From the IMG/VR virus record IMGVR_UViG_3300049070_000179, positions 1 to 60,140 of that record: a stretch of DNA of 60,140 nucleotides; one strand, written 5' to 3'. The notes under the pieces are model-generated. The model was given only the letters and a program-made list of their open reading frames with translations, was not told the DNA's origin and ran no database searches. The stretch is from a virus (lineage: Duplodnaviria; Caudoviricetes). How positions within the stretch are numbered: the first letter of the stretch is position 1; every line of letters starts with the position of its first letter. The translations under genes were made by a program, and so were the position numbers. Positions 14,791 through 45,448 of the stretch are shown here, piece by piece.

Positions 14791-15005
14791 CAACGATGGC
14801 TAAAAGTGAGGCAGAAGCACCCAAATGGGACGAAGAAGCCCTTAAAGCCTCTCTACTAAAAATAGAAGGTGTCAGTGAGAAGATAGCTACCCATGCCGCA
14901 GAACATGGTGTAGTCGATGACGCTCATGTTGTTCAAACTTTTTACCGGGTTAGTGATGTGGCAGCGCGAGCGATCATTAAAGCGTTTAAGGAGGCTAAAG
15001 AATGA
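14781..15005 (+). CDS. small hypothetical protein (possible HhH motif)
   Basis: LLKIEGVSEKIA. Confidence 0.5.
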   Translation: MEITTMAKSEAEAPKWDEEALKASLLKIEGVSEKIATHAAEHGVVDDAHVVQTFYRVSDVAARAIIKAFKEAKE

Positions 15006-15145
15006 TCTTACTACTATCAGTGTTAGCGGTTGTATTAGTAGCCCTGGAGGCGTTTAGGGTTGGTGTAGCTTGGGTGTCTCTGGGCTGGCTAGGGTTGGCT
15101 GTTTGGCTATTAGTGCAAGTTTTGGGGCAAACCGGGGTATTTTGA
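15002..15145 (+). CDS. two-TM microprotein (47 aa)
   Basis: MILLLSVLAVVLVALEAFRVGVAWVSLGWLGLAVWLLVQVLGQTGVF*; overlaps both neighbours by ATGA/TGATG. Confidence 0.6.
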   Translation: MILLLSVLAVVLVALEAFRVGVAWVSLGWLGLAVWLLVQVLGQTGVF

Positions 15146-16038: not shown

Positions 16039-16390
16039 CATCAATAAGCAGGTGGGTACACCTAAAAAAGTTACTTTGGACAATGGCACAGTTGTTAACC
16101 GAGTAGAGGCAATTTTTGTTCCTGAGTACAGAACCTTTGTTAAATGTGCAAGCTATGATTCCCATTTTATCTATCTAAATCCCGACACTTCCGAAGGCTC
16201 ATCAGCCTATCTTTGCACGTGCGGCAATGTGGCCGTAATAGCGCCACCGGGGCCAGCAGGGCTGTTCGTGTGCCTCTTTGATCTTAACACGGGGCTGAAG
16301 GGTTATCATGCGACTTCGCTTTACAACAAGAGAGAGGGAGCGCACGGGCAGCGGTTGGACTTGGATAAGGTGCGGAGGGAGCTTATTTGA
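16028..16390 (+). CDS. hypothetical protein (Cys/His-containing)
   Basis: Operon packing, CTCG. Confidence 0.55.
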   Translation: MTFNINKQVGTPKKVTLDNGTVVNRVEAIFVPEYRTFVKCASYDSHFIYLNPDTSEGSSAYLCTCGNVAVIAPPGPAGLFVCLFDLNTGLKGYHATSLYNKREGAHGQRLDLDKVRRELI

Positions 16391-16620
16391 TGCCAAAGAT
16401 AGTGATATTCAAAAACAGGCAATGGTTAACAGTTTATTCTAACGACCAAGTGCCTTTGATAGGTGATATTATAGCCCTAAAAAAGAATAGTATTACTAAA
16501 TACCAAGTTACTTCACGTGCTTGGGCTATTGAAGGCAGTGAAGTTAGGGTGGTAGATAATGAGCCGGAATATTTAGATGGTGAGTTGGAATATGTTCAAT
16601 TGGACGTGATAGAGCTATGA
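16387..16620 (+). CDS. hypothetical protein
   Basis: Operon packing. Confidence 0.5.
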   Translation: MMPKIVIFKNRQWLTVYSNDQVPLIGDIIALKKNSITKYQVTSRAWAIEGSEVRVVDNEPEYLDGELEYVQLDVIEL

Positions 16621-17729
16621 CACTCACCATCGACATTTTTTGTAACGATGGCTCACCCCTCCATATCATCCCCCCAGATATTTATGGCCGTGGGGTAGGC
16701 GGCGCTGAACTCTCCATGATGACTTGGGCTTCTGTAATGGCTTCCAGGGGGCATCGAATCCGAATATATAACAACCCCTCCCAGCCTGGTGACTATGATG
16801 GTGTTGAGTATCTGCCTCAGAGTGCTTTTGTGTGGCGCGAGGAACGCGATGTATTCGTGGCGTACAGATCACCTAACCGCTACACTCGCATGGTACGGGC
16901 AGCCGTTAAGTTGTTTTGGAGCACAGATCAGCAGACGGTAGGGAACTTTGCAACTGATGTATTCCCATTTGTGGACCGGATAGTGTGTATCTCTCCCTTC
17001 CATGTTGACTACCACCTTAAGAGATACTTGGGTGACTACGAGTCCTTTATGGACCGTTTAGGCCAGCCTTATGAGCCACTAGAGCATAAAATAGGTTACT
17101 TCGATCTTGGGGTGAGAGTTGAAGAGTACCAGCAGGAAGTGGAGAAGATACCGGGCCGTTGTATATTTTGCTCCGTGCCAGAGCGGGGCTTAGAAGTACT
17201 TAGAATGATGTGGCCTCGCATCAAAGAGCGTGTACCGGGGGCTTCATTGGTGATAACCAGTGACTATACTTTGTGGGGATCTCCTAACCCATTAAACCAA
17301 GAACATCGCTTAAACTGGCTGCATCACAAAGATGTAGAATTTATGGGCAAGATACCACGCGAACAGCTTGTAAGGGAACAATTGAAGGCTGAGGTGATGC
17401 CGTTTAGTTGTTCCTACGAGGAACTTTTTTGTATCTCAGCCGCAGAATGTCAAGTAGCAGGAGCTATTCCTATAACCAGCAGCCTAGGAGCTTTGCCTAC
17501 AACCAACCAGTGGGGAAGCGTACTACCTGGGAATCTACTTGATGGTAGGTGGCAGACTCTCTTTATTAACCGAGTAGTAGATATGCTTAACTTTAATGGT
17601 AGGCCATCTCTTAGAATGATGAGAGAGGAAGCCCAGCAGCGCTTCAACTGGCAAACTATTTGCACTCAATGGGAGCACCTTATTCAAACTGGTGAATTTG
17701 CTACTAAGCCTATTTTGGAGGCAGCTTAA
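16617..17729 (+). CDS. glycosyltransferase family 4 (GT-B)
   Basis: GVGGAE, SVPERGL, EELFCISAAECQVAG. Confidence 0.88.
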   Translation: MTLTIDIFCNDGSPLHIIPPDIYGRGVGGAELSMMTWASVMASRGHRIRIYNNPSQPGDYDGVEYLPQSAFVWREERDVFVAYRSPNRYTRMVRAAVKLFWSTDQQTVGNFATDVFPFVDRIVCISPFHVDYHLKRYLGDYESFMDRLGQPYEPLEHKIGYFDLGVRVEEYQQEVEKIPGRCIFCSVPERGLEVLRMMWPRIKERVPGASLVITSDYTLWGSPNPLNQEHRLNWLHHKDVEFMGKIPREQLVREQLKAEVMPFSCSYEELFCISAAECQVAGAIPITSSLGALPTTNQWGSVLPGNLLDGRWQTLFINRVVDMLNFNGRPSLRMMREEAQQRFNWQTICTQWEHLIQTGEFATKPILEAA

Positions 17730-17801
17730 TGGAGTACTTTGTAGGACTCCTCAGCATGGCAATAGTTTGGACTATCTTATTTATCTACATAGAAGGGTAA
17801 A

Positions 17802-17984
17802 ATGGCTAAAAGATTCATCATAACTCCAATAAGTGAGGATGGCACCGTTGGCCGGGCTATCTACGTCCACAAGAAGAGCAAGATTGAGGGCTTCATAGAG
17901 ACTGTGGGGGCTATTATGGTCACTTGCATCTTCTTCTACATAGTACTATTCATAGTGAGGGCAGCTATAGAGGTTTACTGGTGA
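17802..17984 (+). CDS. small membrane protein
   Basis: C-terminal TM helix. Confidence 0.5.
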   Translation: MAKRFIITPISEDGTVGRAIYVHKKSKIEGFIETVGAIMVTCIFFYIVLFIVRAAIEVYW

Positions 17985-19144
17985 CCATTTTATACATAAG
18001 TGACTTTGATCTAAAAGGCAGTGGCTACGCCAATATAGCCTTTGCCCTTTGTTCTCACCTTGTCAGCCGGGGCTACGATGTGCAAGCTATTGGCCTGGGG
18101 TACAGTGGTGAGGAGCATTACCTCCCCTTTAGAATTGCCCCTTGTCCCAATGTCTCCTACATCATTCCTATTGTTAATGAATTGCGGCGACAGGGAGTCA
18201 CAATTGAAGTCATGATAGCCGCCTTAGATGTTCCCCTGCAAGAGGCCATTTTACAACAGTGTGGCCCTGCTCGTGACATCCCTTACATTGGCATATTTCC
18301 ACTGGAAGCTGGCCCACTGAGTCAAAGCTGGGCTATGTCGCTTCTTCAGATGGATCGACGCCTGGTTATGTCCCAGTTCGGTACGGCTGAATGTGAAGCT
18401 ATCGGGGTAGATGCCACTTATATACCTATTGGAGTGGACTGTGAAGCTTGGCGACCACCGACAGATGAGGAGCGCCTTACCTTCCGCAAGGGGCTAGGTA
18501 TTCCAGAGGACTCCTTCGTCGTGCTTACTGTAGCTGATAACCAGGAACGCAAGAATCTAAGCCGGGCGATGGACATATTTGCAGGCGCTTGCAAGGGCAC
18601 TAACGCTCATTATTTAATGGTCACACGGCCGAACTCCCCAGTAGGTTGGAAGATCCAAGACTATGCCGCTTCTTTAGGGATCTTTGGACAAATGAACGTC
18701 TGGGATCGGGGCATGGGCTTTAAGCAGCTATGGTCACTGTTCGCAGTAAGTGACGCTTTTTTACTCACAAGTAAGGCTGAGGGGCTAGCTATGCCCGTGC
18801 TAGAAGCCATGAGCATGAGGGTACCGGTAGTCGGTACTAACTGTACAGCTATTGAGGAGCATCTAAAGGATGGGCGAGGGCTACTGATAAAGCATGACGC
18901 TGAGGTTTACGGCTACCCTCCTCACGTTGATCCATTTGGCAATGGCAGGCGATATTTTGCTAATTTGGAGGATGGGGTTTACCAGCTTAGGCTATTAAGG
19001 GATGGCATGAGCCAGCTTGATATTTTTAATATGATAGAAGCGGCGCAGGAGTACGTACAGGCACGGAGATGGGAAGCGGCGGCCAGCGTGTTGGTGGAAG
19101 CAATTGAAGGGGTTAAACAACCTTTAGAGATGGAGCTAGCATAG
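17981..19144 (+). CDS. glycosyltransferase family 4 (GT-B)
   Basis: SGYA, NQERKNL, TSKAEGLAMPVLEAMS...PVV; start likely GTG 17981. Confidence 0.9.
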   Translation: MTILYISDFDLKGSGYANIAFALCSHLVSRGYDVQAIGLGYSGEEHYLPFRIAPCPNVSYIIPIVNELRRQGVTIEVMIAALDVPLQEAILQQCGPARDIPYIGIFPLEAGPLSQSWAMSLLQMDRRLVMSQFGTAECEAIGVDATYIPIGVDCEAWRPPTDEERLTFRKGLGIPEDSFVVLTVADNQERKNLSRAMDIFAGACKGTNAHYLMVTRPNSPVGWKIQDYAASLGIFGQMNVWDRGMGFKQLWSLFAVSDAFLLTSKAEGLAMPVLEAMSMRVPVVGTNCTAIEEHLKDGRGLLIKHDAEVYGYPPHVDPFGNGRRYFANLEDGVYQLRLLRDGMSQLDIFNMIEAAQEYVQARRWEAAASVLVEAIEGVKQPLEMELA

Positions 19145-19145
19145 A

Positions 19146-19367
19146 ATGGATAAAATTGATCCTGGTTTTGTTGAGGCCCATCAACTATATCTTGATGAAT
19201 TAGATAAGGCTTATGATGAGCTAAAATTTTACGCTAGTGATCCCGATGTACTTAACGAGGACTGGCCTAAATACAAACAAGCAAAAGAGAGATTCAGCGC
19301 CCTATTAGGTGACATTCTCTTATTTAAATCTGTTTGGTATGAGGTAAGGGAATTAAAGGATGGCTAA
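19146..19367 (+). CDS. hypothetical protein
   Basis: Operon packing. Confidence 0.5.
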   Translation: MDKIDPGFVEAHQLYLDELDKAYDELKFYASDPDVLNEDWPKYKQAKERFSALLGDILLFKSVWYEVRELKDG

Positions 19368-20208
19368 ACGCAAGCACAAACCCACTCAGCCCAACTGCCA
19401 ACTAGACATCGTTATCCCGGTGTACGGACAGGCTACTCTCCTTAATGCCTGTATTCAAGCTCTACCAGGGGCAGCGCAAGATACCCCCTACCGCCTAATA
19501 GTGGTAGACGACTGTGGCCCCGAACAAGAGCAACTAGGCGCTATCTATCGCTCTCTCAATGGCACTTCCAAAGTGATTAGGAACCGACAAAACAGCGGCT
19601 TTGCCCGCACGGTTAACACCGGAGTCGCGCAAGGCTCATCCCCCTTTATCCTGCTTCTTAACAGCGACTGCATATTACAACCGGGGGCTATCCCTGCAAT
19701 GCTCCAAGAATTCAACGACCCTGAAGTAGGTATAGTTGGAGCTAAGTTGCTCTTTGGTGACAATAGGTGGCAACAGCAGGGCAAGGTACAACACGCCGGC
19801 CTATGTCGCTCCATTCAGGGGCAATTAGTCCACATTAACCTGGGCTGGAGCACAGATCATCCCAAGGTCAACCAGAGGCGCGAGATGCAGATGGTAACGG
19901 GCGCTTGCCTGATGACACGGCGTGAAGCATGGCGCAAAGTACACGCTGAATACCGCAAGTACGGCGATCCTTCTAAGGGGGCCTTGAATGAGGTTTACGA
20001 CCGGGGATGCTACGAAGATACCGAATTTTGCCTAGCCACTAAGGCGCAAGGCTACAAGGTGATCTACTGCCCTGATGCGGTTGGCTTACATTACGTTGGG
20101 GCTTCCATTACAGCGGCTAATGAAGCGTATCCATTGGGTAGGAATTCAATGATCTTTGGCGCTAGATGTGGGCACCTTGTACAATATGATGAATGGAGGT
20201 TTTTGTGA
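19360..20208 (+). CDS. glycosyltransferase family 2
   Basis: IVIPVY, VVDD, NSGFA..VN.G, LLNSD, VTGAC, YEDTE. Confidence 0.9.
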   Translation: MAKRKHKPTQPNCQLDIVIPVYGQATLLNACIQALPGAAQDTPYRLIVVDDCGPEQEQLGAIYRSLNGTSKVIRNRQNSGFARTVNTGVAQGSSPFILLLNSDCILQPGAIPAMLQEFNDPEVGIVGAKLLFGDNRWQQQGKVQHAGLCRSIQGQLVHINLGWSTDHPKVNQRREMQMVTGACLMTRREAWRKVHAEYRKYGDPSKGALNEVYDRGCYEDTEFCLATKAQGYKVIYCPDAVGLHYVGASITAANEAYPLGRNSMIFGARCGHLVQYDEWRFL

Positions 20209-20370
20209 GCGATACTTTACAGTCCGGTCGAACCTTATTACAGCAAGATAACCGACCTGATAACCGGACTGAATACCAACACTTTGCCGGCAGTTCGCAA
20301 CGACATCGCTTCATTGTCGGCTAAAGTGAACAGTATTATTGGAGCCTTGCAGAGGAATGGGATTCTGTGA
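20205..20370 (+). pseudogene. frameshifted head-fibre-like gene
   Basis: GGAGG+GTG frame MSDTLQSGRTLLQQ shifts +1 into ITDLITGL...DIASLSAKVNSIIGALQRNGIL*. Confidence 0.5.
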
Positions 20371-21053
20371 CTAGCCTATTTTTAATTACCGGTTCTACTA
20401 TTCTAAATGATAGCATCTTCCTGGCCTATGGTGGCGGCCAGAACGGCACCGGTACAGCTACTCAGCGACAGGGGGCCTATCAAATGGCTGAGACGTTCGC
20501 AGCGATGGAGATCGGCACACCCTTAACTCCTCAGTCGTTTACTGGTATCTTCCAATGGTGGCCTACTTCCCGACTTCAATTACCCCATAAGCGGGTGCAA
20601 AGCGTAACCACAGTCACAGCCCTGCATGAGCTACCTTGCACCTCTGACCCATTAGAGCTATCTGGCCATGCTCTCATCGTAGACAGTGACAACGGAGTAA
20701 TTGATCTTAGGTCGTGTAGTGGCGGGGCCTCGTGCGCGTGTGCCTGGGCAACGGGTTGGGGTGGTAGTGCTGCCAGGGTAGAGGTAACTTATGTAGCTGG
20801 AATCCCAGCGGGGTTAGCTAGTGCCTATCCTGGAGTGCTACAGGGGCTAACAATAGCGGCTGATATTGCCCTACAGCAGATACTGGACTGTAGCCCGGAT
20901 GGTGATCCGCAAGTGACAACCTTTAGCGATTCTGGCTACAGCCAAACTGTTCAGGGCTTGGTTATGACTCAATTTGGTGGGTCGAGTCGGGCTAATTATG
21001 CAGCTAGGATGTTTGAACCCTTAAAGTTCCGTGGTGCATTGAGGATGAGATGA
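20367..21053 (+). CDS. head-tail adaptor
   Basis: Position; VQSVTTV, VEVTYVAG, FSDSGYS pattern. Confidence 0.7.
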   Translation: MTSLFLITGSTILNDSIFLAYGGGQNGTGTATQRQGAYQMAETFAAMEIGTPLTPQSFTGIFQWWPTSRLQLPHKRVQSVTTVTALHELPCTSDPLELSGHALIVDSDNGVIDLRSCSGGASCACAWATGWGGSAARVEVTYVAGIPAGLASAYPGVLQGLTIAADIALQQILDCSPDGDPQVTTFSDSGYSQTVQGLVMTQFGGSSRANYAARMFEPLKFRGALRMR

Positions 21054-21415
21054 CATCTGGACTGAATCTTAGAGGCACCATCTGGCGTATGAACCAAGCT
21101 ACTGACGATTCCGTTGGAGGTGCAGTTATTACGGGGACTCCCGTTGCCAACAACCTCCTAATGTCCATCTATTCACGCCGGCCTTCTCAGATGAGCTTAG
21201 AGCAGGGGCTGGAAGTCCCCGCTTTATATGACGCTACCGTTAAATGCGGTGTAACCATCTATGAGCGGGATGAAGTGGAGGTTACGTGTCCGACGAGTAG
21301 TCCGCATTATGGTTTAAGATTCAGAATCATCGGAGTACAACCAGCAAAAAGAACCAGAGCGAGTGAACAGCACCTAACCCTGAGTAGAATCAGACGGAGT
21401 CGACGCCAGCAATGA
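21050..21415 (+). CDS. head closure protein
   Basis: DDSVGG, IYERDEV, RFRIIGV; synteny. Confidence 0.65.
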   Translation: MTSGLNLRGTIWRMNQATDDSVGGAVITGTPVANNLLMSIYSRRPSQMSLEQGLEVPALYDATVKCGVTIYERDEVEVTCPTSSPHYGLRFRIIGVQPAKRTRASEQHLTLSRIRRSRRQQ

Positions 21416-21765
21416 GCGTTAAGCGCAGTGGTAAAATGGTGGGCCTGGAAGCCCGAATGGAATCAGGAGCTAAAGAAGGCCTGATCTTAAGCGGTGACCT
21501 AATAGCCGAACGCGCACGGGACCGAGTCCACATTATTACCATGCGCCTTAAGAACTCCATTAAGCGGGGCAACCCATTTAAGACCAGTAGAGGCATGGCT
21601 ATCTCTGTAGGGAGTAATGTTGAATACGCTGCTGATGAAGAATTTAGAGAGGGTGAGAAGCACGGTACATCCCATGCTTATTTGAGGCCGGCGCTTGATA
21701 TGAGTCGCAAGGAGGTTATTGTACTAGCGGGTAAGAAGATAGTGGCTAAAATGGTGAGGCGATGA
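21412..21765 (+). CDS. HK97 gp10-like neck protein
   Basis: T.RLKNSI, VGSNVEYA..EEF, AYLRPAL. Confidence 0.8.
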   Translation: MSVKRSGKMVGLEARMESGAKEGLILSGDLIAERARDRVHIITMRLKNSIKRGNPFKTSRGMAISVGSNVEYAADEEFREGEKHGTSHAYLRPALDMSRKEVIVLAGKKIVAKMVRR

Positions 21766-22616
21766 CTATAGAGCAAGAGCTTATAGCTGTACTTAGTCAG
21801 ATACCATCCATAGTAGAGAAGGCGCAACTAGACGCGCTGGTATTGCGTCATCCTGGTCATGCTAGCCAGAAGCCTCATGGTAGGCGTTATGGGGCAGGGG
21901 GTGAGGTCTTACCAAAAGGCCACAAGAGAGGCGATGCTGTTAAGGGGGGTAAGAGTGGGGGAGGTAGCGCAAAAAAAGAAGAACCCAAAAGTAATAAGCC
22001 AAGTGGCGGGGATAGTCAAAAACAAGATGCCAATACCGACCCATCAACCTGGAAGCAGCGACTAACTAAAAAAGAAGATCGTGCTTTAAGAGACTACGCT
22101 GGCTCTGAGTATCAACGCCTTAACTCAGGTTTGCGTAATGGCAAATTATCCAAAAAGGACCAGGATACAGTAGACGCTTTAGACTCAGCCCTATCTAAAA
22201 GTAGGCTAACAAAAGACGCTACTTTACATAGTAATGAGACTCTATTCAGGGCAGCAGAGATACCCCAGGTTAACGCAGCTTTGAAGTCCGGTAACATTGA
22301 AGGCTTGGAATTCTCGGATAAGGGCTTCGTCTCCACTTCCAGGGACAAAGACGTTGCTAAAAACTTCCAGAGGAGCGAAGGCTCCCGCCTATATATTATA
22401 AATGCGCCTAGAGGAACTAAAGCGGGGGATATTAGCTCTTTAGGCTCTACTTTTGCTAAGGAGAATGAGACTTTATTAGCACGGGATACTAAGTTTAGGG
22501 TGAGCAAGGTTGAGAAGATGAAGGACAGGGTGTCTTACTATGATTCGAAGGGCAAAGTTAAGTACAAGGATAAGATGGTGGAGTACATTCATTTAGATAT
22601 AGTGGGGCAAGGGTGA
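21762..22616 (+). CDS. ADP-ribosyltransferase (VIP2-like, R-S-E clade) with N-terminal leader
   Basis: Y..LN.GLR, LFRA, GFVSTS, ENETLL.R motifs. Confidence 0.88.
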   Translation: MTIEQELIAVLSQIPSIVEKAQLDALVLRHPGHASQKPHGRRYGAGGEVLPKGHKRGDAVKGGKSGGGSAKKEEPKSNKPSGGDSQKQDANTDPSTWKQRLTKKEDRALRDYAGSEYQRLNSGLRNGKLSKKDQDTVDALDSALSKSRLTKDATLHSNETLFRAAEIPQVNAALKSGNIEGLEFSDKGFVSTSRDKDVAKNFQRSEGSRLYIINAPRGTKAGDISSLGSTFAKENETLLARDTKFRVSKVEKMKDRVSYYDSKGKVKYKDKMVEYIHLDIVGQG

Positions 22617-23080
22617 TAGACAACAACCTCATTCAGGCTGCCCTTGTCGCCAAACTTAAAGCCAATACTGCTTTAGTTGGCTACCTTACTCAATTCGGGG
22701 CACAAGATGAGATACGGGAGTCCCAATTCCAGGGCGGAACTTTTTTATACCCAAATGTGCGTGTTGAGCTAGGCACCCAAATAGAAGAGGGCAACCCCCC
22801 TTGTTACTCCACTATTCCCTTTACGGTTTACTCCTACTCAGAGAAGGATAGCAGCCAAGAAGCTAACCAGTTGGCCGGCTACGTCAACCGGGCTTTTGGC
22901 TTTGATGCCTCTGGGGGACATACTCCCCAGGCTGTGCTAGTAACAGGCTCTAGCGTGGGTGGTAGCTTCCACAGTGGCATAATTGTTAGCGATGGCTCAA
23001 TAGCGGCCCGGAGAGTATCTGAGAGGGTATGGCAGGCCGTTGGCCTCTACCGCATGAACATCTACGGGGGCACGCCATGA
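22613..23080 (+). CDS. tail terminator / tail completion protein
   Basis: IQAALVAKLKAN..L, YPNVRV, VYS; synteny. Confidence 0.7.
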   Translation: MIDNNLIQAALVAKLKANTALVGYLTQFGAQDEIRESQFQGGTFLYPNVRVELGTQIEEGNPPCYSTIPFTVYSYSEKDSSQEANQLAGYVNRAFGFDASGGHTPQAVLVTGSSVGGSFHSGIIVSDGSIAARRVSERVWQAVGLYRMNIYGGTP

Positions 23081-23226
23081 GTGAGGTTCGATGCCCTTCT
23101 TGCGGGCACTTGCTCTTTAAGTTTTTAGGGTTAGGGTGTATAATAGAGATAGTATGTACCCGGTGCAAGGCCGTGGTAAAATGGCCTAAAACTGAGGCTG
23201 AGGTTACGCAACCTAGCCGCAAATAG
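23077..23226 (+). CDS. com: Mu Com-like zinc-ribbon translational regulator
   Basis: EVRCPSCGHLLFK...IEIVCTRCKAV. Confidence 0.75.
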   Translation: MSEVRCPSCGHLLFKFLGLGCIIEIVCTRCKAVVKWPKTEAEVTQPSRK

Positions 23227-23297
23227 AGCGCCCCAGAGCGCCTGCTACCAATTTATTGAACACCTTTGAGTGTCTGACTCAAAGGTGTTTTTATTTT
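23225..23297 (+). promoter_or_regulatory. AGAGCGCC tandem repeat plus 13-bp hairpin/T-tract (putative Com target and terminator)
   Basis: AGAGCGCC at 23225 and 23235; AACACCTTTGAGT/ACTCAAAGGTGTT hairpin 23259-23289. Confidence 0.6.
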
Positions 23298-23550
23298 GCA
23301 CAAAAGAAGCTGGGTAACACGCGACTTAAACGACCTATACGGGCAAGGAATACGGTGCAACTTCCACACTCGGTTAGTTATCCTGGGAGAGCGGACTCCA
23401 TCGGGGCAACCTTACGACTTCCAGCCCGGTGAAGTAAAGGACGATGTTATGCAGGTAGACATTGACTATCTATTGTCACTAACTTATCAACAAACAAGCT
23501 GTTGCGGTGGTTCGCCTGCAATAGCGATACATTATTTTGAGCTAGTTTAA
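23296..23550 (+). CDS. small virion-associated protein, paralog of 12667
   Basis: TPSGQPYDFQP...DIDYLL...SCCGG. Confidence 0.55.
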   Translation: MHKRSWVTRDLNDLYGQGIRCNFHTRLVILGERTPSGQPYDFQPGEVKDDVMQVDIDYLLSLTYQQTSCCGGSPAIAIHYFELV

Positions 23551-23561
23551 GGAGGATCACC

Positions 23562-24209
23562 TTGGCATTAATAACAGGTTCGCCAGTTGGCAATATTATA
23601 ACGCCGCCTAATCTTTATTTGGATCAACCCCCCACCTTTTGGATTCAAGAACGCTTCACCTCAGCAGGGGCTACCGTTGGCCTACTCAACCGGCCCGACG
23701 CTAACAATTTTTACTGGGGGTTAAGCGGCACTACAGCTAACCCGGTGTATGAAGTCGGCTGCTATGAGAACTTCGCTATTGCCGACGTTCGCACTATTAA
23801 CATGATCCGGTGTGATACCACCGGGGTGAGAACGGCCATTCAAAAGCGAGATCAGCTAAATATTACGTTCACGCTTAAGACTCCGTTCCCGCTAGCGACG
23901 GTTCGGCACCTTCTCAATTTGGGACCGGTGACTACAACTCCTGGAGCAACCGAGAAGGTGGGCGTCGGCATTATTGACAACTCTAAATATTACTACGCGT
24001 ACTTCGCGAGTATATACGACCAGACTACCGGCGATTATCTGAACTTCACCGGCCATAGAGTCCAGTTCACCAACGCCTGGCAGTGGGCATTTGTGTATGG
24101 AAACGCTGCAACATTTACTATCCAGGCGTCGTGTTTTGCCGACGAGGATAAGCCCCAAGATCAGTACTTTGCGACGATCATCCGGGCTGACCCGTCCAGC
24201 ATCACCTAA
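23562..24209 (+). CDS. major tail tube protein
   Basis: AAGGAGG RBS, beta-rich 215 aa, upstream of chaperones and tape measure. Confidence 0.7.
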   Translation: MALITGSPVGNIITPPNLYLDQPPTFWIQERFTSAGATVGLLNRPDANNFYWGLSGTTANPVYEVGCYENFAIADVRTINMIRCDTTGVRTAIQKRDQLNITFTLKTPFPLATVRHLLNLGPVTTTPGATEKVGVGIIDNSKYYYAYFASIYDQTTGDYLNFTGHRVQFTNAWQWAFVYGNAATFTIQASCFADEDKPQDQYFATIIRADPSSIT

Positions 24210-24859
24210 TGAACGGGTTCTTTGAGGCTTTAGAGTCTCAGAGTGTGGTAGTAGTCCTGGCTGGGTGTGCGGTAAAAATAGAACGCGCCCGGCTAGGACT
24301 ACACCTCCTTTCAGGTAGGCTAGCTGATAGGTTCGATAATGCGCCCGGTAGTGTGGAGATGGCCCAGGCCATTCAGGGGTACTTTGAGGCGCTAGGGTTA
24401 GATGTAAGCAGGGCGAGTCCAGTTGAGATACTAAGGGCCTTTACCCTCCTGAGAGAGCTTAACCGGTGGCAGTGGGCTTTAGCCTTCATGAAGGGACAAC
24501 CTGCTAAAGGCGAGACAGAGCCTTATGACTACGAAGGCCGCAACTGGGCATGGGTCATTCACAAATTAGCCTCTCGATATGGCTGGACTCGTGACCATAT
24601 TTTTAACTTGTACCCAGAAGAGGCAGCGGCCTATCTGCAAGAGATTCTAGTCAGCGAACATCAAGAATCTGAGGAGAGGTATAGGTTAAGTGAACTGGCC
24701 TATCAATATGACTCCAATAGCAAAACATCAAGGTATGTCCCATATCAAAAGCCCTCATGGATGGTTAACAACGAGCTACCTAAGCCTGTCAAAATGCTTA
24801 GGAGCATGCTCCCCTATGGTGTCCAGAATTTGGCCGGGGAAGAGATCATTTACCACTAA
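24209..24859 (+). CDS. tail assembly chaperone-like protein
   Basis: Synteny; LASRYGWT..HI..L motif. Confidence 0.55.
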   Translation: MNGFFEALESQSVVVVLAGCAVKIERARLGLHLLSGRLADRFDNAPGSVEMAQAIQGYFEALGLDVSRASPVEILRAFTLLRELNRWQWALAFMKGQPAKGETEPYDYEGRNWAWVIHKLASRYGWTRDHIFNLYPEEAAAYLQEILVSEHQESEERYRLSELAYQYDSNSKTSRYVPYQKPSWMVNNELPKPVKMLRSMLPYGVQNLAGEEIIYH

Positions 24860-25217
24860 AATAGGGGGTGTTACTCTGGAAGTAAAGCCACTTACTTTAG
24901 AGAACGCCTTACGCCTCACTCTCTTACTATCCCCCTATGTCGCTTCCATTAGACGCTATTGGCCCCACCTACAACAAGCCCTCAATGATGGGGTGCTGTT
25001 AGAATCCCTCCTAAAAGACCTGGGTAAAGAACTACAATTCGCTCCCGGTGACATCGTTACCGCGTATTCTCTTTTACTAAATGTTCCGCATGAATGGATA
25101 GCTGTTAATGCCACGGCTAAAGAACTGATCGAAGTTCTACCTGTTTTGGACCGGGTAAACAACCTCAAAGAACTGTGGCAAGCTGCTTCAGCGTTAGGAA
25201 TAGTGAACAATGGCTAG
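24816..25217 (+). CDS. tail assembly chaperone-like protein
   Basis: KIGGVTLEVKPLTL; AGGAG RBS before ATG 24816. Confidence 0.55.
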   Translation: MVSRIWPGKRSFTTKIGGVTLEVKPLTLENALRLTLLLSPYVASIRRYWPHLQQALNDGVLLESLLKDLGKELQFAPGDIVTAYSLLLNVPHEWIAVNATAKELIEVLPVLDRVNNLKELWQAASALGIVNNG

Positions 25218-28125
25218 CGATAACGAGATCGAACGCCTAACCGTTACCCTGGAATTGGACTATCAACAGTACCTTAGAGATGTTGATAAGGCCGTGGCTG
25301 AGGCCATGCGTAAGCTTAAAGAGACTAACGAGATTCCTAAGAAGCAACAAACTGGTTGGGAGCAACTAACTACCTTCTTAAGTGGTAAGTTCATGCAGGT
25401 TATCACTGGAGTAGGTGTAACTATTGCAGCGGCCTTCTCTGTGGGAGCTGTTACCAACTTCTTTAAGACCATTGCCAGCGGGATGGTTGAGACTAATAAG
25501 CAGTTTGAGACCTTTACTGTACAGTTTACTACCCTCCTTGGTAGCACCAGCGAAGCCCAAAAGCGAATAGATGAGCTAGCCAAATTTGGCGTAGCGACTC
25601 CCTTTGAACTTGACGAGATAGTTGAGGGTAATAGGCTCCTGCAGACCTTTGGCGATACAGCTTTAGCAACAGGGGAGAATCTACGTCGGGTAGGAGACAG
25701 CGCAGCGGCTGTTAACGCTTCATTCCAGGAAGTGTCGTTCTGGACTGGTAGGTTGTATTCTTCAATGATGGCAGGCCGGCCTTTTGGGGAAGCCTCAGCC
25801 CGCTTACAGGAACTAGGTATCCTATCCGGTGAAGCTCGCACTAAATTAGAGGACATGCAAAAAAGTGGCGCTAAAGGTAGCGAGATATGGGCTGCCTACG
25901 CTGAGATGATAGATACTAAGTTCACCGGGGCAATGGACAAGCTCTCTAAAACCTTGCAAGGGGTCATGTCCAATTTAGCAGACTTCCAGCAGATGTTGTT
26001 AAGAGAAGGGGGAGAAGAGCTATTTGAAGGGGTGCGGGAAGATGCTATTGAGTTTTATGATGTTATTAAGGACCCAGAGGTACAACAAGCCCTTATTGGC
26101 TTATCTAAGGCTTTTGGTTCTATCTTGGATAGCTTACGTCAAGCTGTTACAACCCCGTTTTTGGAGCAATTAAAAGACCTGGACTCTAAGCAGATCGATG
26201 ATCTATCTATCTCAATTCAAAATATAGGCGGGTCAATTGGGCAGATCACAGGGGTAAGAATCACTAGCTTGAGTGAGTTAGTCGCTACTTTGCAAGCTGT
26301 AACTCAGGAAGCTGCTACTATCCTCCAAACTCTGAATAAATTAAAGCAGATTCTTGAGATCATTGACCCCAGTATATTAGGGATGACCCATAGACTAAGG
26401 GACATGGGAGTAGTAGGGGAGGAATTAAGGAAGGGTTTTATAGGTTTACTTAGTCCTTTGACTGGAGCAGTTAATATTTTTAACCAGCTAGATAAAGGAA
26501 TTGAAGAACTTACCGGCTCTAATATGTATGAATGGCTAGGGGGAGTAGAAGAGCGCTTAAAAAATGTTGAGACTGCTGGGGATCATGCTTTTAATATGCT
26601 TCAAAGAGGAGCAAAGCAGGCAGTTGATTCGGCGGTAGCCCCAACAGAGGAACCAGAGGACTTTAGTAAGGCTCAAGATCGCTTTGAGAAGCTGTCCCAG
26701 GACTTTTTAGATGCTCAAAAGGAAGTACAGGCCGAACAGGAGGAAGCCGAACGAGACCACGGCGAACGGGTTACTAATATCGTTGAGGACTATCAAGAGC
26801 AAATAGCCGACTTGGAGGAAGATACTGCCCAAAGACGGGCTGAGATCGTTAAGGATTCAGCAGATAGATTAGCTGACTTAGAGGAAGAGGGGGCCGAACG
26901 TCGGGAAGAGATAGCGGAAGATACCGCTAAGGCTCTCACTAAACTAGAGCGAGATACAGCAGAAGCCAAAGCGGACGCGATAGCCGACGCTCAAAGCGAA
27001 TTGGCAGCGGTAGAGGAAGAAGCGCGAGACTCAGTAGCAGAAGTCCAGGAAGAAGCACGCGACAAAGAACGGCGCGAGACTGAAGATCACCAGCGGGACA
27101 TGCAGCGCCTTCAGCAAGACTATCTCCTCAATTTGGAAGATGCTGTTAAAAACCGTGATGCACGGGCTATCGTTGATCTGCGGCGCAAGTACACAACTGA
27201 GAAGCGCGAACGTGAAGAGGATTTTAGAACCCAACAGAGCCGCAGTCGGGAAGAGGCACGCGACCGCATAGAAGAGGCTAGAGAAGCTGAGGAGAAGCGC
27301 AAGCGCGAGATCGAAGAAGCCCTAGAGAAGCAACTGCAGGACATTGAAGAGAACGAGGCAGAGAAGCGGGCTGAGATCGAAGCTAGCCAGCAGGAGCAAC
27401 TAGCCAAACTGGCTGAGACTGAAGCGGAGAAGAGAGCGGAGATAGCAGCCTCTGAGGAAGAGCAACTAGCCAAACTAGCGGAGTCCGAAGCCCAAAAACG
27501 TGCTCAAATAGAAGAGAGTCTAGCCGAACAACTAGCAACTGAGAACGCTAACTATGCCGAACGCCAAGCGGCCTTAGATGCAGCCCTGCAAAAGCGCTTA
27601 GAGGCTGTAGCCCAGCAACTGGCGCAAGAGAAGGAGATCACCGAGGCCGGCGCACAAGCCATTTTGGAGACACTTAACCAGTACTATGGCGTAGGCGGGC
27701 GAATGGATCAGGTGATGGAAGGCTATCGTCAACGTCAACAGGCGCAGATGGCAGCGACAGCGAACTTCAACGCTAATTTACCGGGTAGTGGGCCTGGAGG
27801 TGGGGAGTTTACGCCAGCGGGTAGCGGGGGTGGCTCAGGTATACCCGCTTTTGCTCAGGGTGGTATTGTGCCCGGCCAACCAGGGCAGAAGCGCCTTATT
27901 ATCGCTCATGCTGGTGAATTAGTGATACCACCCGACCAAACCTCCCAGTGGATGCAACAGCAAGGGGATATGATGGCCTCTAATTTTGACAATAGCCCCA
28001 AGATATTGGAAGTAAAGATAAGCGGTAGCGCTCCACCGGGGGTTGGTGGGCAGGAGATAGAAGCAATGGCTTCGATGATGGTAAAAGCATTTGGTGAAGC
28101 AGGAATAAGGGCTAAAAGGCGATGA
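25210..28125 (+). CDS. tape measure protein
   Basis: ATPFELDEI tape-measure domain, long charged coiled coil, C-terminal FAQGGIVPG...HAGELVIP. Confidence 0.9.
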   Translation: MASDNEIERLTVTLELDYQQYLRDVDKAVAEAMRKLKETNEIPKKQQTGWEQLTTFLSGKFMQVITGVGVTIAAAFSVGAVTNFFKTIASGMVETNKQFETFTVQFTTLLGSTSEAQKRIDELAKFGVATPFELDEIVEGNRLLQTFGDTALATGENLRRVGDSAAAVNASFQEVSFWTGRLYSSMMAGRPFGEASARLQELGILSGEARTKLEDMQKSGAKGSEIWAAYAEMIDTKFTGAMDKLSKTLQGVMSNLADFQQMLLREGGEELFEGVREDAIEFYDVIKDPEVQQALIGLSKAFGSILDSLRQAVTTPFLEQLKDLDSKQIDDLSISIQNIGGSIGQITGVRITSLSELVATLQAVTQEAATILQTLNKLKQILEIIDPSILGMTHRLRDMGVVGEELRKGFIGLLSPLTGAVNIFNQLDKGIEELTGSNMYEWLGGVEERLKNVETAGDHAFNMLQRGAKQAVDSAVAPTEEPEDFSKAQDRFEKLSQDFLDAQKEVQAEQEEAERDHGERVTNIVEDYQEQIADLEEDTAQRRAEIVKDSADRLADLEEEGAERREEIAEDTAKALTKLERDTAEAKADAIADAQSELAAVEEEARDSVAEVQEEARDKERRETEDHQRDMQRLQQDYLLNLEDAVKNRDARAIVDLRRKYTTEKREREEDFRTQQSRSREEARDRIEEAREAEEKRKREIEEALEKQLQDIEENEAEKRAEIEASQQEQLAKLAETEAEKRAEIAASEEEQLAKLAESEAQKRAQIEESLAEQLATENANYAERQAALDAALQKRLEAVAQQLAQEKEITEAGAQAILETLNQYYGVGGRMDQVMEGYRQRQQAQMAATANFNANLPGSGPGGGEFTPAGSGGGSGIPAFAQGGIVPGQPGQKRLIIAHAGELVIPPDQTSQWMQQQGDMMASNFDNSPKILEVKISGSAPPGVGGQEIEAMASMMVKAFGEAGIRAKRR
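27355..27540 (+). repeat. 22-aa coding tandem repeats in tape measure
   Basis: EAEKRAEI.AS..EQLAKLAE about 3 times. Confidence 0.7.
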
Positions 28126-28859
28126 CTTTTGAGGAAGAATTAGCGCAAATTCTCAGCCAGATTCCCGCTGTTGTTGAGAGAGCTTTTGCATTAGTGGAGC
28201 GGCATGGAAGCCACAACCAAAAGACACATGGGAATCGTTTTGGGGGATATGGCACAACTAAAGAGAGCTTGAGGCGACTAAAAGATGACAAGACAGAGAG
28301 GGAGAAGTACAAAAATAGGGCTAGGAAGCGACTGGGGCAAGCTGATAAAAAACAACAGAAGAAGCAAACAGGGGGAAGTCAATTAGAAACCCTGAGATCA
28401 ATAGAGAAAGACATCAGGAATCAAAGCTATGAAACAGCGGCTATTGTAGACAGTAAGGGCAGCATTTTGCTTAGAAAAGATGGTAGCAAGGACTATGTAC
28501 CATTTACTGACTCAGAAGTAAAATTGATGAGGGGGGCATCAATAACTCATAACCATCCAAGTGATAACTCATTTTCGCCAGAGGATGGCTATGTACTTGT
28601 TTTAAGTGGTGCGTCAGAAATAAGAGCAGTAGGCAAAAAGTGGACACACTCTCTAAAGCCAAGCCTAGGTAAAGAACTTGACCCAATTAGGGTAAAAAGC
28701 CAGATTGGTGCCCTTGATAGCATGGTAAAACAGAAGTTCTTGAGAGAAATCAACACAGGCAAAATGACTATTCAGCAAGCAGAGGCTGACCACTGGCATG
28801 AGGTTTGGACGGAAGCTTCTAAAAGAATTGGCTTTGAATATAGTAGGGAGGAACTGTAA
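28122..28859 (+). CDS. JAB/MPN-domain protein with N-terminal leader
   Basis: YETAAIVD (E) and THNHPSDNSFSPED (HxH-x6-SxxD). Confidence 0.75.
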   Translation: MTFEEELAQILSQIPAVVERAFALVERHGSHNQKTHGNRFGGYGTTKESLRRLKDDKTEREKYKNRARKRLGQADKKQQKKQTGGSQLETLRSIEKDIRNQSYETAAIVDSKGSILLRKDGSKDYVPFTDSEVKLMRGASITHNHPSDNSFSPEDGYVLVLSGASEIRAVGKKWTHSLKPSLGKELDPIRVKSQIGALDSMVKQKFLREINTGKMTIQQAEADHWHEVWTEASKRIGFEYSREEL

Positions 28860-29065
28860 TGCCAATAACTATAGATAAAGGCCATAATATACCCGTTTAT
28901 AGTCCAATTTGTACTTTTTGCAAGCACCTTAAAGAACAAGGACGTACTTGTAAAGCCTTTCCAGAAAAGGACTCTATTCCCATGGAAATTTGGACAGGGG
29001 AGAATGACCACAAGAAGCCTTATTCAGGCGATCATGGGATACGGTTTGAAAAAAGGATACCATGA
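28859..29065 (+). CDS. small Cys/His protein, candidate partner or immunity protein of the JAB effector
   Basis: CTFCKH...CKAFP..IP.EI..G..DH..P..GD.GI.FE; TAATG overlap. Confidence 0.6.
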   Translation: MPITIDKGHNIPVYSPICTFCKHLKEQGRTCKAFPEKDSIPMEIWTGENDHKKPYSGDHGIRFEKRIP

Positions 29066-29442
29066 GCGGCTCATATCAATTAAGTGCTATCGGTAGTTCT
29101 ACCATGTCTCTGTGGCCTTCCAACCCACTTACTAAAACTCCTCGCCTCAACAGGCTGGCGACAAGTGGGGCCGGTGCTCCAATATTCGCAGCCTTCTTCC
29201 AATGGGACTTTGGATGGGGGCCGGGTCCACGCTCGGACATGAGCTACTTTGAGTCCAGATATATTGCGGGAGGGCTATATAACGCCATTTTGCCACATCC
29301 TATTACAGGGGCTTTAGTGGGCTTTACAGGAGTGGCTATAGAGGACGTTAGCTATACGTTGGGGGAAGTGGAGCGGGACTCGTGGTATGATTCTCTTAGG
29401 GTGACCTTACGGGTGAATTTGTATGCGACGGGAACAGTTTAG
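29062..29442 (+). CDS. distal tail-like protein
   Basis: Synteny after tape measure, beta-rich. Confidence 0.5.
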   Translation: MSGSYQLSAIGSSTMSLWPSNPLTKTPRLNRLATSGAGAPIFAAFFQWDFGWGPGPRSDMSYFESRYIAGGLYNAILPHPITGALVGFTGVAIEDVSYTLGEVERDSWYDSLRVTLRVNLYATGTV

Positions 29443-29459
29443 CCATTGAGCATAAATAG

Positions 29460-32400
29460 ATGACCACTCTCGCCTGTTACGTCAACCAAACCTCAGATGA
29501 TGGCCGTCAAGTTGGCGGTACTGTCTCTATCTCTTCCTTGATCCAAGTTACAGCAGCTAATGACTGGATGGCCTTCCGCTTCCAGGATACACTACTTCCT
29601 CCACCGGGTTCCACCATCTTAATGGCTTATCTGACTCTCAATGTTACCTCAGCTACACGAGATGATCCCAACTTTGATATTTTTGCGGAGAAGAGTCCTG
29701 GTGCTCTTACTATAAGTGAGGTAACTAACAACCTTAGTGATAGGGCCAGGACAGGTAATAGCGTCTCCTGGGCAGAGACAAGTATAGGGGCGGGGCTAAA
29801 GAACTCGCCTAACTTGGCCTCTATTGTGCAAGAAGTCATTAGCCAGCCAGGTTGGATGAGCAGTGCTTTAATGATCCTGCTGAGGGGTAAAACGGGGGTG
29901 AATTTTGGCGTTACGGGCTTTGCTACTTTTGCCACCATTCTGACTATTGACTATATTCCCCCGGCGTTGGCATCTCCCCTCTCTTTTTATCTTGTGACGG
30001 AGAAGCTGCCTACCGTGTTCACCGGCCAACTTAACGCTACCCCTACGGACCCTTACATGACCTTAACAGGTGATGGTGGGGTAACTGGCTCATTCGGCGC
30101 TCCCTTGCCGGGGATGACAGTTTTTTTTGACAATGATGACCAAAAAACAGCGCGGTTGCGAAGCTGGACTCCAGGTACTACCGGAACTTTTACTATTAGT
30201 GTGGGCGAGAACGATGATATTACGCCTTATGTTGTTAACAATGACGATGTGAGTATTAAGGCACAATTTAGACTGTGGCCTATTTATCCCAGGGTATTGT
30301 TAGCGGGGGAGTCCGCTACCATTTATATTGACTATGATATACCCTATACCGATCAAACACGGTTGTGGAAGCCTGTAGCGGTTGCGCCTCCACCGGCTGT
30401 GGTGGAGTACAACGGGGCAACAGCACAAGCTAAATTCGTAGGGGATCGCTCTTTTACGCTCTCACCCTCAGCCAGTATATCTAGTTATTTGTGGACGGCA
30501 CCAGGAAGTGTGGAAGGTAGCAGTAGTAGTCAGGGAACAGAAGCCTCACCAGTTACATTTACCTGGACCTCGCCCGGTCAAAAGCTAGTTTACCTCAAAG
30601 TAACAGATAGTAACGGTAAAACAGCTACTAACTACACCTGGGTTTTTGCTGTTCCAACCGCTGATCCGACTACAGTAGCCTATACCCAATTCGATGAATT
30701 CAACGACAACTTTGACAGTGAGCAAGGGGGCGGCTCTTGCTCCTTTGTGGTACATGGCAATGCCAGTATAAGTGACTTCCCCAATGAGTGCTTAGTGATA
30801 ATGGCGAGTAGGCCAACTTCGCCGGGACAGGTTACGCCCACCTCTTATTGGCCCTTTAGAGACAATGTACACTTCGTCGGGTACATCATAGGCGATAGTG
30901 TGCGCCAAAATCCCCTTACAGGTGATGTGTCTTTTACGGCTGCTACTATTGACTCCCTGATGAAGAACCTGACAGTATTCCCGGTATCCCTAACCACAAA
31001 GGCTACCCCATTGGACTGGACTCAAGCAGCTAACCTCACAGCAGATAGGGCAGCATCTTATCTGTGGCACTACTATTCTACCCTCTCTCTAATGGCTCCT
31101 ATTCAACCGTGTGAGTATGCGGGCCTTATCTGGAGGCAGGACTTTGGACCGGGCGACCTCTTTAGCCAGCTTAATAATGAGCTAATGAGTTCTCTATGGG
31201 GCCGGGTAGTAGTTAACCATCAAGGGGTTGTGTATCATGAGATAGACTACAATTTGATGCTGACTTCTGAACGGGCCGGGGTTACTACGCGCAAAACCTT
31301 ACACAAAGGTTTGTGGGTAGATGACCTCTCTATTGAGGAGCGGATGGCCTACTCTCAGCCTACTAACACGGTTAAAATGTCAGGAGTGTTATACTTGGGG
31401 GGTGAGTTGGTGGACGTTTGCCCCTCCTTTAGTGAAGCCCCAGGCAATGCTCCTAAACCCTTTGGACGCGAACTAAACTATGACAGGCTTATATTAACCT
31501 CTCAAAGTGACTTAAATACCCGCTGCGGTCTAGCCCTAGCTAAAGCGGTTCCCAAGTACAGCGCGTTTATGATGCGCTTTATCAACGATGGCTCTTTTAC
31601 CATTGCTCCACAAGAACTATTCCCTACTATCATCGAGGCTAATGATAACAACCGGGGGCTGGCCCTTACCATTGATCTTATCCCCAGAAGGGTGAGCCGG
31701 CGCTACGATCACGATTCCGGCATCATAGAATACGATGTGAGCTTTGAGCCTGAGACGACTGGCCCACCGGGGGTTACAGTTGATCTGCCATGTGGCCCAC
31801 CAGCGCAGCAAAGATCACAAGATGACCCACCGGATGAACCCGATGAAGGCGTACCAGAGGAGTCCCTCAATGCTCTTGCCTTAGCGAATGAGGGCAGTAG
31901 CTTTTACCTGGGCAAAAGTGGGGGCCAGTGGGAGCGACGAGTCAAGGGGCTGACTACCTTAAACTTCCAGGATATGATAAAAGATCCTTGGAGCAACTTC
32001 AAACAGGGCAACAGTATAGAGAACATTATCTTGTGGGGGTGTGGCCCTAACTTTTTAGCTCATAGTAAAGACAGCGGTAAAAACTGGAGCGATCACACAG
32101 TATACATGGATGCGCCTCCCAACAGTTGGGGTGATGGCGCTACCCCTTCCTTTACCGGCACACTGGTTAAGCAGGTACTTGGCGACTACTTCAGGCAAGA
32201 CACCTTTTATGTCATGCTCCAAGTAGTAGACAGCGGGAACTATCGGGGGTGGATATATCGCACGGCTGACGATGGCTTTAATTTTACGCCTTATGCGCTT
32301 ACGGGGACTTCTCAGGCGCTACCGTTGAGGATGAGCATAGATACCCAGGATAGTAGTATCTTATGGTTAACCTTGTGGGAAGGCAACGGCAATATATCTC

Positions 32401-45317: not shown

Positions 45318-45448
45318 CATACCACATAGCGACTCTGTAGTTCTCTGAGGTGTCTCGCCCGTACAGCTTGAATATCGGGCCTAGCAAGAGGTAGTCAAGC
45401 CTGAGGTGAGTCGCAACTAATATATAATGGCCTCGCTAAAAGCTCCTT

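Follow-up and report, generated by a model that had tools for sequence, protein, structure and literature searches.

In a 60,140-bp tailed-virus record (IMG/VR record IMGVR_UViG_3300049070_000179, Caudoviricetes; linear, estimated to be 72% complete), analysed here over its whole length and hereafter called the window, two open reading frames (ORFs) of the late operon, ORF A and ORF B, begin with the same leader of about 45 residues and continue into two unrelated enzymatic domains, an ADP-ribosyltransferase (ART) and a probable JAB/RadC-like domain. The leader recurs on about 100 other proteins with unrelated cargos, consists of two separable parts, an amphipathic N-terminal helix and a histidine-rich core, and is associated with phage head genes. 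The most probable explanation, in our judgement, is that A and B are single-effector members of a previously undescribed family of tagged phage proteins that are packed in the virion and injected with the DNA. What has been observed is the tag itself, how it is built, how widely it is spread over unrelated cargos and its association with head genes; the packaging, docking, processing and injection of the tagged proteins are what we infer.

ORF A, ORF B and their common leader

ORF A occupies positions 21762-22616 (284 aa) and ORF B positions 28122-28859 (245 aa), both on the + strand. Over the first ~45 residues 26 of 47 aligned positions are identical (BLASTP E 7e-12), in agreement with the preliminary description of this DNA, which had reported a leader shared by the two proteins from these very starts. 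A six-frame tblastn search of the window reveals no third copy, the next match having an E value of ~0.1. The two DNA segments agree at 77 of 135 aligned bases, and different codons are used for 16 of the 26 residues that the proteins share, indicating that the leader is conserved as protein and not as DNA, as had also been claimed. It is hardly credible that the resemblance is due to chance or is the functionless remnant of a duplication. Although the window holds two copies only, this explanation must contend with the E value, with the diverged codons of identical residues and with the ~100 other proteins that carry the same leader on unrelated cargos.

The two genes also start in the same context, as previously noticed. 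The 11-mer AGGCGATGACT occurs in the window at positions 21757 and 28117 only. In the first copy (21757-21767, + strand) the last codons and the TGA stop of the upstream neck gene overlap the ATG of A (ATGA), and in the second (28117-28127, + strand) the stop of the tape measure gene overlaps the ATG of B in the same manner. These overlaps suggest that A and B are translationally coupled to late structural genes. The likeness of the gene starts continues for ~20 nt on the upstream side, within the preceding genes (GGCTAAAA...AGGCGATGACT, interrupted by a 6-nt indel), and the proteins encoded upstream of A and of B both terminate in -RR; it could reflect a shared ribosome-binding or coupling element, or be the trace of cassette insertion. 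A programmed frameshift joining B to the tape measure protein was considered and set aside, as no slippery heptamer was seen on reading the junction.

The cargo of A (22044-22616, + strand) is an ART, as had been proposed. Residues 95-260 match PF03496 with 91.4 bits (cut-off 23.4; E 6e-26), PHROGs returns an Alt-like ART (E 3e-10), and the R / S-T-S / E-x-E catalytic residues of exoenzyme-type ARTs are found as R163, S191-T192-S193 and E234-N-E236. The cargo of B (28374-28859, + strand) had been described as a JAB protein. It is probably JAB/RadC-like, as judged from its predicted fold and from the invariance of its putative metal site. The AlphaFold model of residues 85-245 has a pLDDT of ~88. 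Foldseek places RadC (2qlc) on top with a probability of 0.99, though with an E value of 5e-3. VIA-align gives 5ld9 (JAMM1) a Z of 7.7, with a root-mean-square deviation of 3.4 over 101 aligned residues, and 2qlc a Z of 7.1; values below 8 fall in the grey zone of this tool, whose top rows are nevertheless filled by JAB chains. The JAB/MPN+ metal site is defined by E...H-x-H...S-x-x-D, and the residues E104, H143, H145, S152 and D155, which conform to it, are invariant in the four members of the B family. The spacing between H-x-H and S in B is one residue shorter than in RadC. The original assignment is moderately supported by the predicted fold and by the metal-site residues, while family searches do not support it: no JAB/RadC family is detected in Pfam at E<=0.1, nor is there a match in PHROGs or NCBIfam.

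The stop codon of B overlaps, in turn, the ATG of a 68-aa ORF (28859-29065, + strand; TAATG), which matches phrog_33375 only, a family of unknown function (E 2e-4), and might encode a partner or inhibitor of B. This small protein contains Cys and His residues.

Helix, core and linker

Alignments of ten leaders, and later of 99 full proteins, divide the leader into two parts. The preliminary description had treated it as a single unit; this does not hold, since the N-terminal helix is restricted to true N-termini, while the core is repeated at every module boundary of longer proteins (see below).

The first part corresponds to residues 1-28 of A (21762-21845, + strand) and 1-26 of B (28122-28199, + strand). 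With the 99-row alignment, AlphaFold predicts helices at residues 3-11 and 14-26 of the A leader with confidence (block pLDDT 91/88/70); in B a helix spanning residues 3-27 is predicted with low confidence. The hydrophobic moment of the leader is matched by 4% of shuffled sequences for A and by 0.35% for B. Of 61 long-form leaders, 58 are amphipathic at z>1.64 relative to their own shuffles, although these are related sequences and not independent trials.

The second part is a 16-residue core with the consensus [R/E/K]-H-P-G-H-x-[N/S/D]-Q-K-x-H-G-[N/R]-R-x-G, thus containing three histidines. It is preceded by a hydrophobic stretch, A-[F/L]-[V/I/L]-x-[R/E/K]. In A it reads R29-HPGH-AS-QK-P-HG-R-R-Y-G44 (21846-21893, + strand). 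In the numbering of A, H30, H33, Q36, H39 and G44 are invariant in the alignments, and R29, P31, G32, K37, G40 and R42 nearly so. Core copies of standard spacing number 134, in 109 of the 120 tagged proteins described below; H-P-G-H, Q and the last H are conserved in all of them, it being noted that the pattern by which they were collected had preset the H, Q and H positions alone. The core of B, R27-HGSH-N-QK-T-HG-N-R-F-G41 (28200-28244, + strand), is divergent. It is one residue shorter and lacks the P-G, and B belongs to a group of 11 proteins, out of 120, in which the standard spacing is not found. In the AlphaFold model of A the core is predicted to be coil (pLDDT ~50), and residues ~29-93, comprising core and linker, show no secondary structure at all (pLDDT 44-56).

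Behind the core comes one of two alternative basic linkers. A has the Gly/Lys-rich type 1, 'GGEVLPKGHKRGD...' (21894-22043, + strand), and B has type 2, 'KESLRRLKDDK..EKYK...' (28245-28373, + strand), which is common to 58 of the 99 relatives. Over 50 linker residues, Lys and Arg together number 11 in A and 17 in B, bearing out the basic character ascribed to these segments. Across the 99 relatives they make up 27.7% of the 40 positions that follow the leader vs 18.5% of the remaining protein.

No model covering leader residues 1-45 is found in Pfam (99 members searched), in PHROGs or in NCBIfam (7 tagged proteins searched). The PHROG matches concern at most 18 of the 99 members and all lie on ART cargo, and Pfam detects no family common to the members besides those of the cargos. 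Among these models, then, the leader does not coincide with a MuF or minor capsid domain, an identity that would have spoken against the preliminary description.

Cargo diversity and genomic associations

The preliminary description had proposed that the leader carries interchangeable enzymes, and suggested a profile search for the range of C-terminal domains. A word-indexed search with the leader profile through 5.8 billion clusters, which covered proteins longer than the query only, yields 84 proteins at E<=1. An exhaustive hidden Markov model search of 1.84 billion representatives yields 80 at E<=1e-3, 42 of them at E<=1e-10. Pooling of both gives 120 proteins, of which 101 are no longer than 360 aa and carry the leader. 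When the cargo is defined as the protein minus the leader and 40 further residues, 99 of these are retained (two being too short) and fall into 49 BLAST clusters, including 33 singletons. The leader is thus by no means confined to the two domain types seen in the window. Just 26-28 of the 99 short members have a Pfam cargo domain: PF03496 in 18, PF01129 in 2 (their overlap with the 18 not being reported), ATLF in 4, HNH_3 in 2, ChaB in 1 and Peptidase_Mx in 1. HExxH motifs are discernible by eye in several further cargos. More than one linker type is present in 6 of the 16 multi-member cargo clusters; for instance, B-like JAB cargos follow a type-2 linker in P0010 and P0034 but a type-1 linker in P0060 and P0069. 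That the same cargo clusters occur with different linker types indicates that leaders and cargos have been recombined repeatedly, by module shuffling.

At the DNA level, a first, stricter core pattern demanding the leading Arg codon retrieved one viral and three metagenome stretches; one match (L004) was dismissed as fortuitous, lying in a stop-filled frame. With a relaxed pattern, 27 of the 29 additional viral loci examined (25 contigs) prove to contain the motif, as does L003. The core is found in phages with Actinomycetota-type, Bacteroidota-type and mid-GC genomes. A related-locus search of viral contigs with the leader alignment gave 21 pattern matches and no tblastn-confirmed one, probably because the query has just 48 aa. 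Among 185,579 species genomes, 37 pattern matches were filtered manually and convincing copies were accepted, by our own judgement, in two, both of them metagenome-assembled genomes (MAGs; L008, L009/L010 and L033); the others were dropped as short or off-frame ORFs, mostly in high-GC DNA. One of the accepted contigs, from a Chitinophagales MAG (L008:2-5174, minus strand), contains four consecutive large ORFs with core variants, including 'HPGHPDQSVHNPHK', and with ART- and GNAT-looking modules, which shows that the tag is present in a Bacteroidota-associated element.

A constant N-terminus joined to a hypervariable C-terminal enzyme is reminiscent of the MuF polymorphic toxins (PMC5576092). 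Accordingly, the tagged proteins could be toxins for interbacterial competition, released at lysis or carried on particles, with the leader as a trafficking domain and the 68-aa ORF, translationally coupled downstream of B, as immunity protein. Toxin-type ARTs and HExxH peptidases among the cargos would agree with this model. Yet A lacks a comparable small ORF, the next gene being a 155-aa ORF of the structural series. The tag is also almost absent from bacterial genomes and hence from prophages, whereas MuF toxins have been described as a feature of temperate phages. Finally, the presence of kinase, GNAT and RadC modules agrees with a role in taking over the host or countering its defences, as for the polyvalent proteins discussed next. 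On balance we regard the toxin model as improbable.

The core also recurs as a separator in very large proteins. All 19 hits of at least 500 aa in the exhaustive search match the profile from position 10 on only, mostly over ~19-47, in 2-6 stretches each, and successive core copies are spaced by a median of 255 aa. A Pfam scan covering 18 of the 19 (P0115 was left out) detects PI3/PI4-kinase-like modules in 5, ART in 3, GNAT in 2, DUF7178 in 4, a DRAT-like end in 1 and a portal in 1; five have no Pfam family at all, and two have weak unrelated matches only. At least two effector domains are found in several of the tagged relatives, e.g. P0087, P0092, P0096 and P0099. This repertoire is that of the phage polyvalent proteins, for which packaging in the capsid and injection have been inferred (PMC5512222). 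Two stretches of one IMG/VR contig (L053:3-2366 and L071:2459-6016, minus strand) are contiguous, and a single ORF seemingly spans their boundary; the frame comprises ~1,970 aa with six core copies and lies downstream of an 870-aa MuF-containing ORF.

Tagged genes are associated with head genes in several ways. Some cores are fused to the portal itself. In P0118 a PF06381 portal continues into several core copies, each trailed by a small domain, L050 encodes a 774-aa portal homologue with a core at residue 580, and L005 has a degenerate core copy in the C-terminal extension of a portal-like ORF. At L005:2769-4007 (minus strand), a 'YWT.G.G..KW...PW..LY.HL' domain that matches phrog_6439 is present twice in the C-terminal extension of the portal; it is also contained in PHROG families annotated as head maturation protease or as virion structural protein. 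One or two single-module tagged genes, with ART, kinase-like or unknown modules, lie immediately 5' of a PF04860 portal gene in six actinophage-type contigs (L010, L033, L046, L058, L066, L070). TerL is located upstream in five of the six. Downstream of the portal comes a conserved gene of weak MuF likeness and then, where the locus extends so far, a ClpP-type protease. The identification of this conserved gene as MuF, made by eye, is weakly supported: it matches the MuF of Microbacterium phage Nebulous over the Cys motif (BLASTP E 0.002), while no Pfam family is detected at E<=0.001 and PF04233 is sub-threshold in three of five records. The order is TerL, portal, tagged ORF in L006 and tagged ORF, protease, capsid in L003.

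It is in relation to MuF that the preliminary description, which spoke of a MuF-independent leader, must be qualified. PF04233 is absent from A and B and, as had been stated, from all six frames of the 60-kb record (E<=10). In ten further viral records, PF04233 scores above the family cut-off in seven. In five of the ten, MuF lies directly upstream of a tagged polyvalent gene on the same strand, at distances ranging from a 45-nt overlap to ~400 nt; in two it lies 3-7 kb away, and in three it is absent. The latter include L073, a 172-kb record with terminal repeats and an estimated completeness of 100%, which encodes a 176-aa tagged protein (L073:5568-6095) and is a second instance, after the window, of the tag without MuF. 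Independence from MuF therefore applies to the window and this complete phage, while the tag may cooperate with MuF where both are present, given the five records in which the tagged gene directly follows it. In isolated phages, the nearest relatives of the ART of A are the C-terminal domains of annotated MuF fusions, minor head or morphogenesis proteins (16 records). One of them, Nebulous gp5, is built of MuF, linker and ART and lacks the HPGH core. The same point, that MuF carries such cargo, has been made in the literature for Alt/VIP2-type ARTs (PMC9503650).

The fused portals also bear on a different reading of the core, as a short linear motif that is read by something found in all hosts, such as a conserved host protein, a metal ion or a nucleic acid, and serves activation, localisation or regulated cleavage of enzymes expressed late or delivered, by whatever route these enter the cell, the leader not being a packaging tag. 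The extreme invariance of a disordered 16-residue, three-His core across phages with different head machineries would be explained in this manner, as would the retention of the core where the cargo is already covalently fused to the portal. What it leaves unexplained is the conserved amphipathic helix, the strict placement among morphogenesis genes and the equivalence to MuF-borne cargo. Moreover, if limited to the core it is compatible with virion packaging, being a true rival solely in its 'not packaged' form, which we deem unlikely.

In the window itself, A and B are situated within a late operon of siphovirus type on the + strand. Its order is large terminase (TerL; phrog_38, E 9e-45), portal, protease-scaffold, capsid, a methyl-/glycosyltransferase block, adaptor/neck, ORF A, tail, tape measure, ORF B and distal tail. 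The two genes are thus encoded among the virion and packaging genes of a portal-terminase phage, and the earlier claim that both interrupt the morphogenesis operon stands. The gene preceding A (21412-21765, + strand) is neck/tail-completion-like by a weak match to phrog_5 (E 0.0012), and that preceding B (25210-28125, + strand) encodes a 971-aa tape measure protein (phrog_9959, E 9e-14; PF20155 below cut-off). An alternative route would have the tagged proteins enter the tail lumen instead of the head, alongside the tape measure protein, with which they would exit when the phage infects. The start of B on the tape measure stop and that of A on the stop of the neck-like gene speak for this route, and a relative of the B cargo with a different N-terminus, gp044 of Aphanizomenon cyanophage CL131, is encoded between head-completion and tail genes. 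Elsewhere, however, the tag is found on C-terminal extensions of portals, which are expected to face the capsid interior, and among terminase, portal and protease genes or directly after MuF. A tape measure gene was not noticed beside any of the 27 motif-positive viral loci, a weak argument as the tail genes there are unannotated. The tail-lumen route is kept in play by the position of the window genes at the neck and after the tape measure gene, but appears quite unlikely.

Several other features of the window deserve mention. The ORF at 6860-8434 (+ strand) is a PF04860-like portal by ESM Atlas (feature score 0.96; PF04860 in 28 of 30 matches), with no match in Pfam or PHROGs, and is a candidate assembly partner of the tagged proteins. 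The ORF at 9505-11082 (+ strand) probably encodes the prohead protease, with an S78-like N-terminal half and a charged, helical, scaffold-like C-terminal half. This assignment is to be taken as a lead; it relies on ESM Atlas (a score of 0.93 for PF04586 clusters, with structure rows 6 and 9 reaching the bar), there being no match in Pfam, PHROGs or NCBIfam and no meaningful match in a PDB sequence search. The probable capsid protein (11204-12415, + strand) matches phrog_212 weakly. A complex prediction combining the leader, residues 330-525 of the 9505-11082 ORF and the capsid protein gave a score of 0.00 (mark 0.32); made without controls, it is neutral. Between the portal and protease genes, two ORFs of ~95 aa in different frames (8956-9255 and 8970-9251) overlap almost totally, so that one at most is a real gene; the product of the first looks membrane-like. 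Between the capsid gene and the head-tail connector genes (12921-20208) lie a methyltransferase gene (12921) and a glycosyltransferase block, with GT2 matches in Pfam at 13460 and 14101 and glycosyltransferase-looking ORFs, judged by eye, at 15070, 16617, 17924 and 19360. This block suggests enzymatic glycosylation of virion proteins. A single tRNA gene, for tRNA-Ile with anticodon TAT, is located at 45246-45318. Megablast with positions 20000-30000 of the window returns no match.

Proposed route of the tagged proteins and related systems

According to the packaging model, A and B would be made during particle assembly because they are translationally coupled to late genes through the ATGA overlaps. 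The amphipathic helix of ~26 residues would be the docking handle in the assembling particle, the core a signal at each module junction (for processing, release or handling) and not a docking element, and the basic linker a flexible spacer that may lie along the DNA. The helix is the better docking candidate because it is confined to true N-termini, whereas the core is unlikely to dock to the portal because it is kept at every internal module boundary, even in portal-fused cargo. After injection the ART would modify host proteins in the manner of T4 Alt, and the substrate of the RadC-like JAB protein would be a nucleic acid, a nucleotide or a protein. Procapsid loading of interchangeable enzymes, as envisaged in the preliminary description, is partly supported by the observed variety of cargos and association with head genes; packaging itself is the conjectural part.

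Who reads the core is another matter. Cleavage by the prohead protease of each phage was considered and down-weighted, as the same core coexists with a ClpP-type protease (L010) and probably with an S78-type one (the window). The invariance of the core would be better explained by a reader shared by these phages, for instance a host factor, a metal or DNA, or by some property residing in the core itself. A bolder proposal is that the core, as a disordered 16-residue motif, is a universal junction signal of injected polyproteins, served by one common reader (a factor shared by phages of unrelated head machinery, the host or a bound metal) that cuts or hands over each effector module, and the helix a MuF-free docking handle, the two forming a portable addressing and release code. 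We consider this doubtful.

A number of facts weigh against virion packaging as proposed here. No tagged protein is known from a virion. In the window A and B reside in the neck and tail part of the operon and not next to the portal, with B coupled to the tape measure gene. A receptor co-evolving in each phage, or cleavage by the phage's own protease, would hardly be expected to leave the core nearly invariant across PF04860 and PF06381 portals and across ClpP-like and, probably, S78-like proteases. The core of B is itself of the divergent subtype. The family is rare, as illustrated by the 80 hits among 1.84 billion representatives and the two positive genomes out of 185,579. Moreover, tblastn with the leader alone matches no isolated phage among 50,697 records, and hence no proteomics can be linked to the leader.

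Phage T4 offers one precedent. T4 Alt is a packaged ART, and the T4 capsid targeting sequence (CTS) has ~10 residues, which the T4 prohead protease cleaves off at an L/I-x-E site. Like the leader described here, the CTS of IPI-III and Alt is a short N-terminal peptide shared by diverse proteins, and the cargo of A is Alt-like by PHROG. The T4 targeting peptide is described as the only element conserved among the diverse internal proteins, and directs them into the prohead (PMC3012670). Unlike the CTS, the present leader is ~45 residues long, has a separate, invariant His-rich core that is repeated in polyproteins, and comes from siphovirus-type genomes whose proteases are S78-like or ClpP-like. 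The logic of a targeting peptide followed by a processing site is nonetheless that proposed for helix and core, the two systems being set side by side by description and not by sequence. DarB of phage P1 is a large injected multi-enzyme protein. Its N-terminal 30 residues suffice to send a reporter to the capsid (PMC9024508). Compared, again, by description, the P1 signal is that of one protein in one phage, whereas the tag is found on ~100 proteins, whose cargos form 49 clusters, and its core is repeated.

Effectors fused to MuF resemble the tagged proteins in having a conserved N-terminal carrier, a linker and interchangeable C-terminal enzymes encoded in the head module (PMC9503650, PMC5576092), and the ART family of A is itself borne by MuF in Nebulous and other phages. 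They differ in that A and B are devoid of MuF and the carrier is a 45-residue peptide and not a folded domain; in five of the ten other records the tagged gene is a separate one directly after MuF. The polyvalent proteins of Iyer, Burroughs, Anand, de Souza and Aravind (2017) resemble the long core-bearing relatives, which are likewise strings of ART, kinase-like, GNAT and other modules in virion-gene contexts. Polyvalent-protein domains are also described as solo versions among late genes (PMC5512222). A and B each have one cargo domain and thus fall short of the two effector domains of a polyvalent protein. The terms 'linker', 'conserved motif', 'histidine-rich' and 'low-complexity' do not appear in the main text of that paper (PMC5512222), though its supplementary architecture files might show the segment. 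Literature searches found no paper linking an HPGH motif with phage and, for a shared N-terminal packaging signal on virion effectors, nothing relevant among the matches listed. The tag therefore appears to be undescribed, while the strategy, namely packaged and injected effectors that share an N-terminal element or are carried by MuF or the portal, is already known. Beyond phages, an analogy may be drawn with the cargo-loading peptides of encapsulins, in which a short conserved peptide on a flexible linker brings unrelated enzymes into an HK97-fold shell. It is an analogy only, the tag being known here from sequence, and to our knowledge the encapsulin peptides and the tag are unrelated in sequence.

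The choice of proteins that are packed and injected is known in detail for a few model phages only. If the tag marks such cargo, injected effectors could be found from sequence alone. The ~70 of 99 short tagged proteins without a known domain would then be candidates for new host-takeover or counter-defence enzymes. The tag would also provide a concrete, mutable element for studying the loading of cargo and the division of polyvalent proteins into working parts. Furthermore, it might be used as a transferable handle to bring foreign proteins into phage particles, a role that the T4 and P1 signals already fill. Were the two-part code to prove true, it would be transferable to any protein and would already be labelling dozens of unknown injected enzymes.

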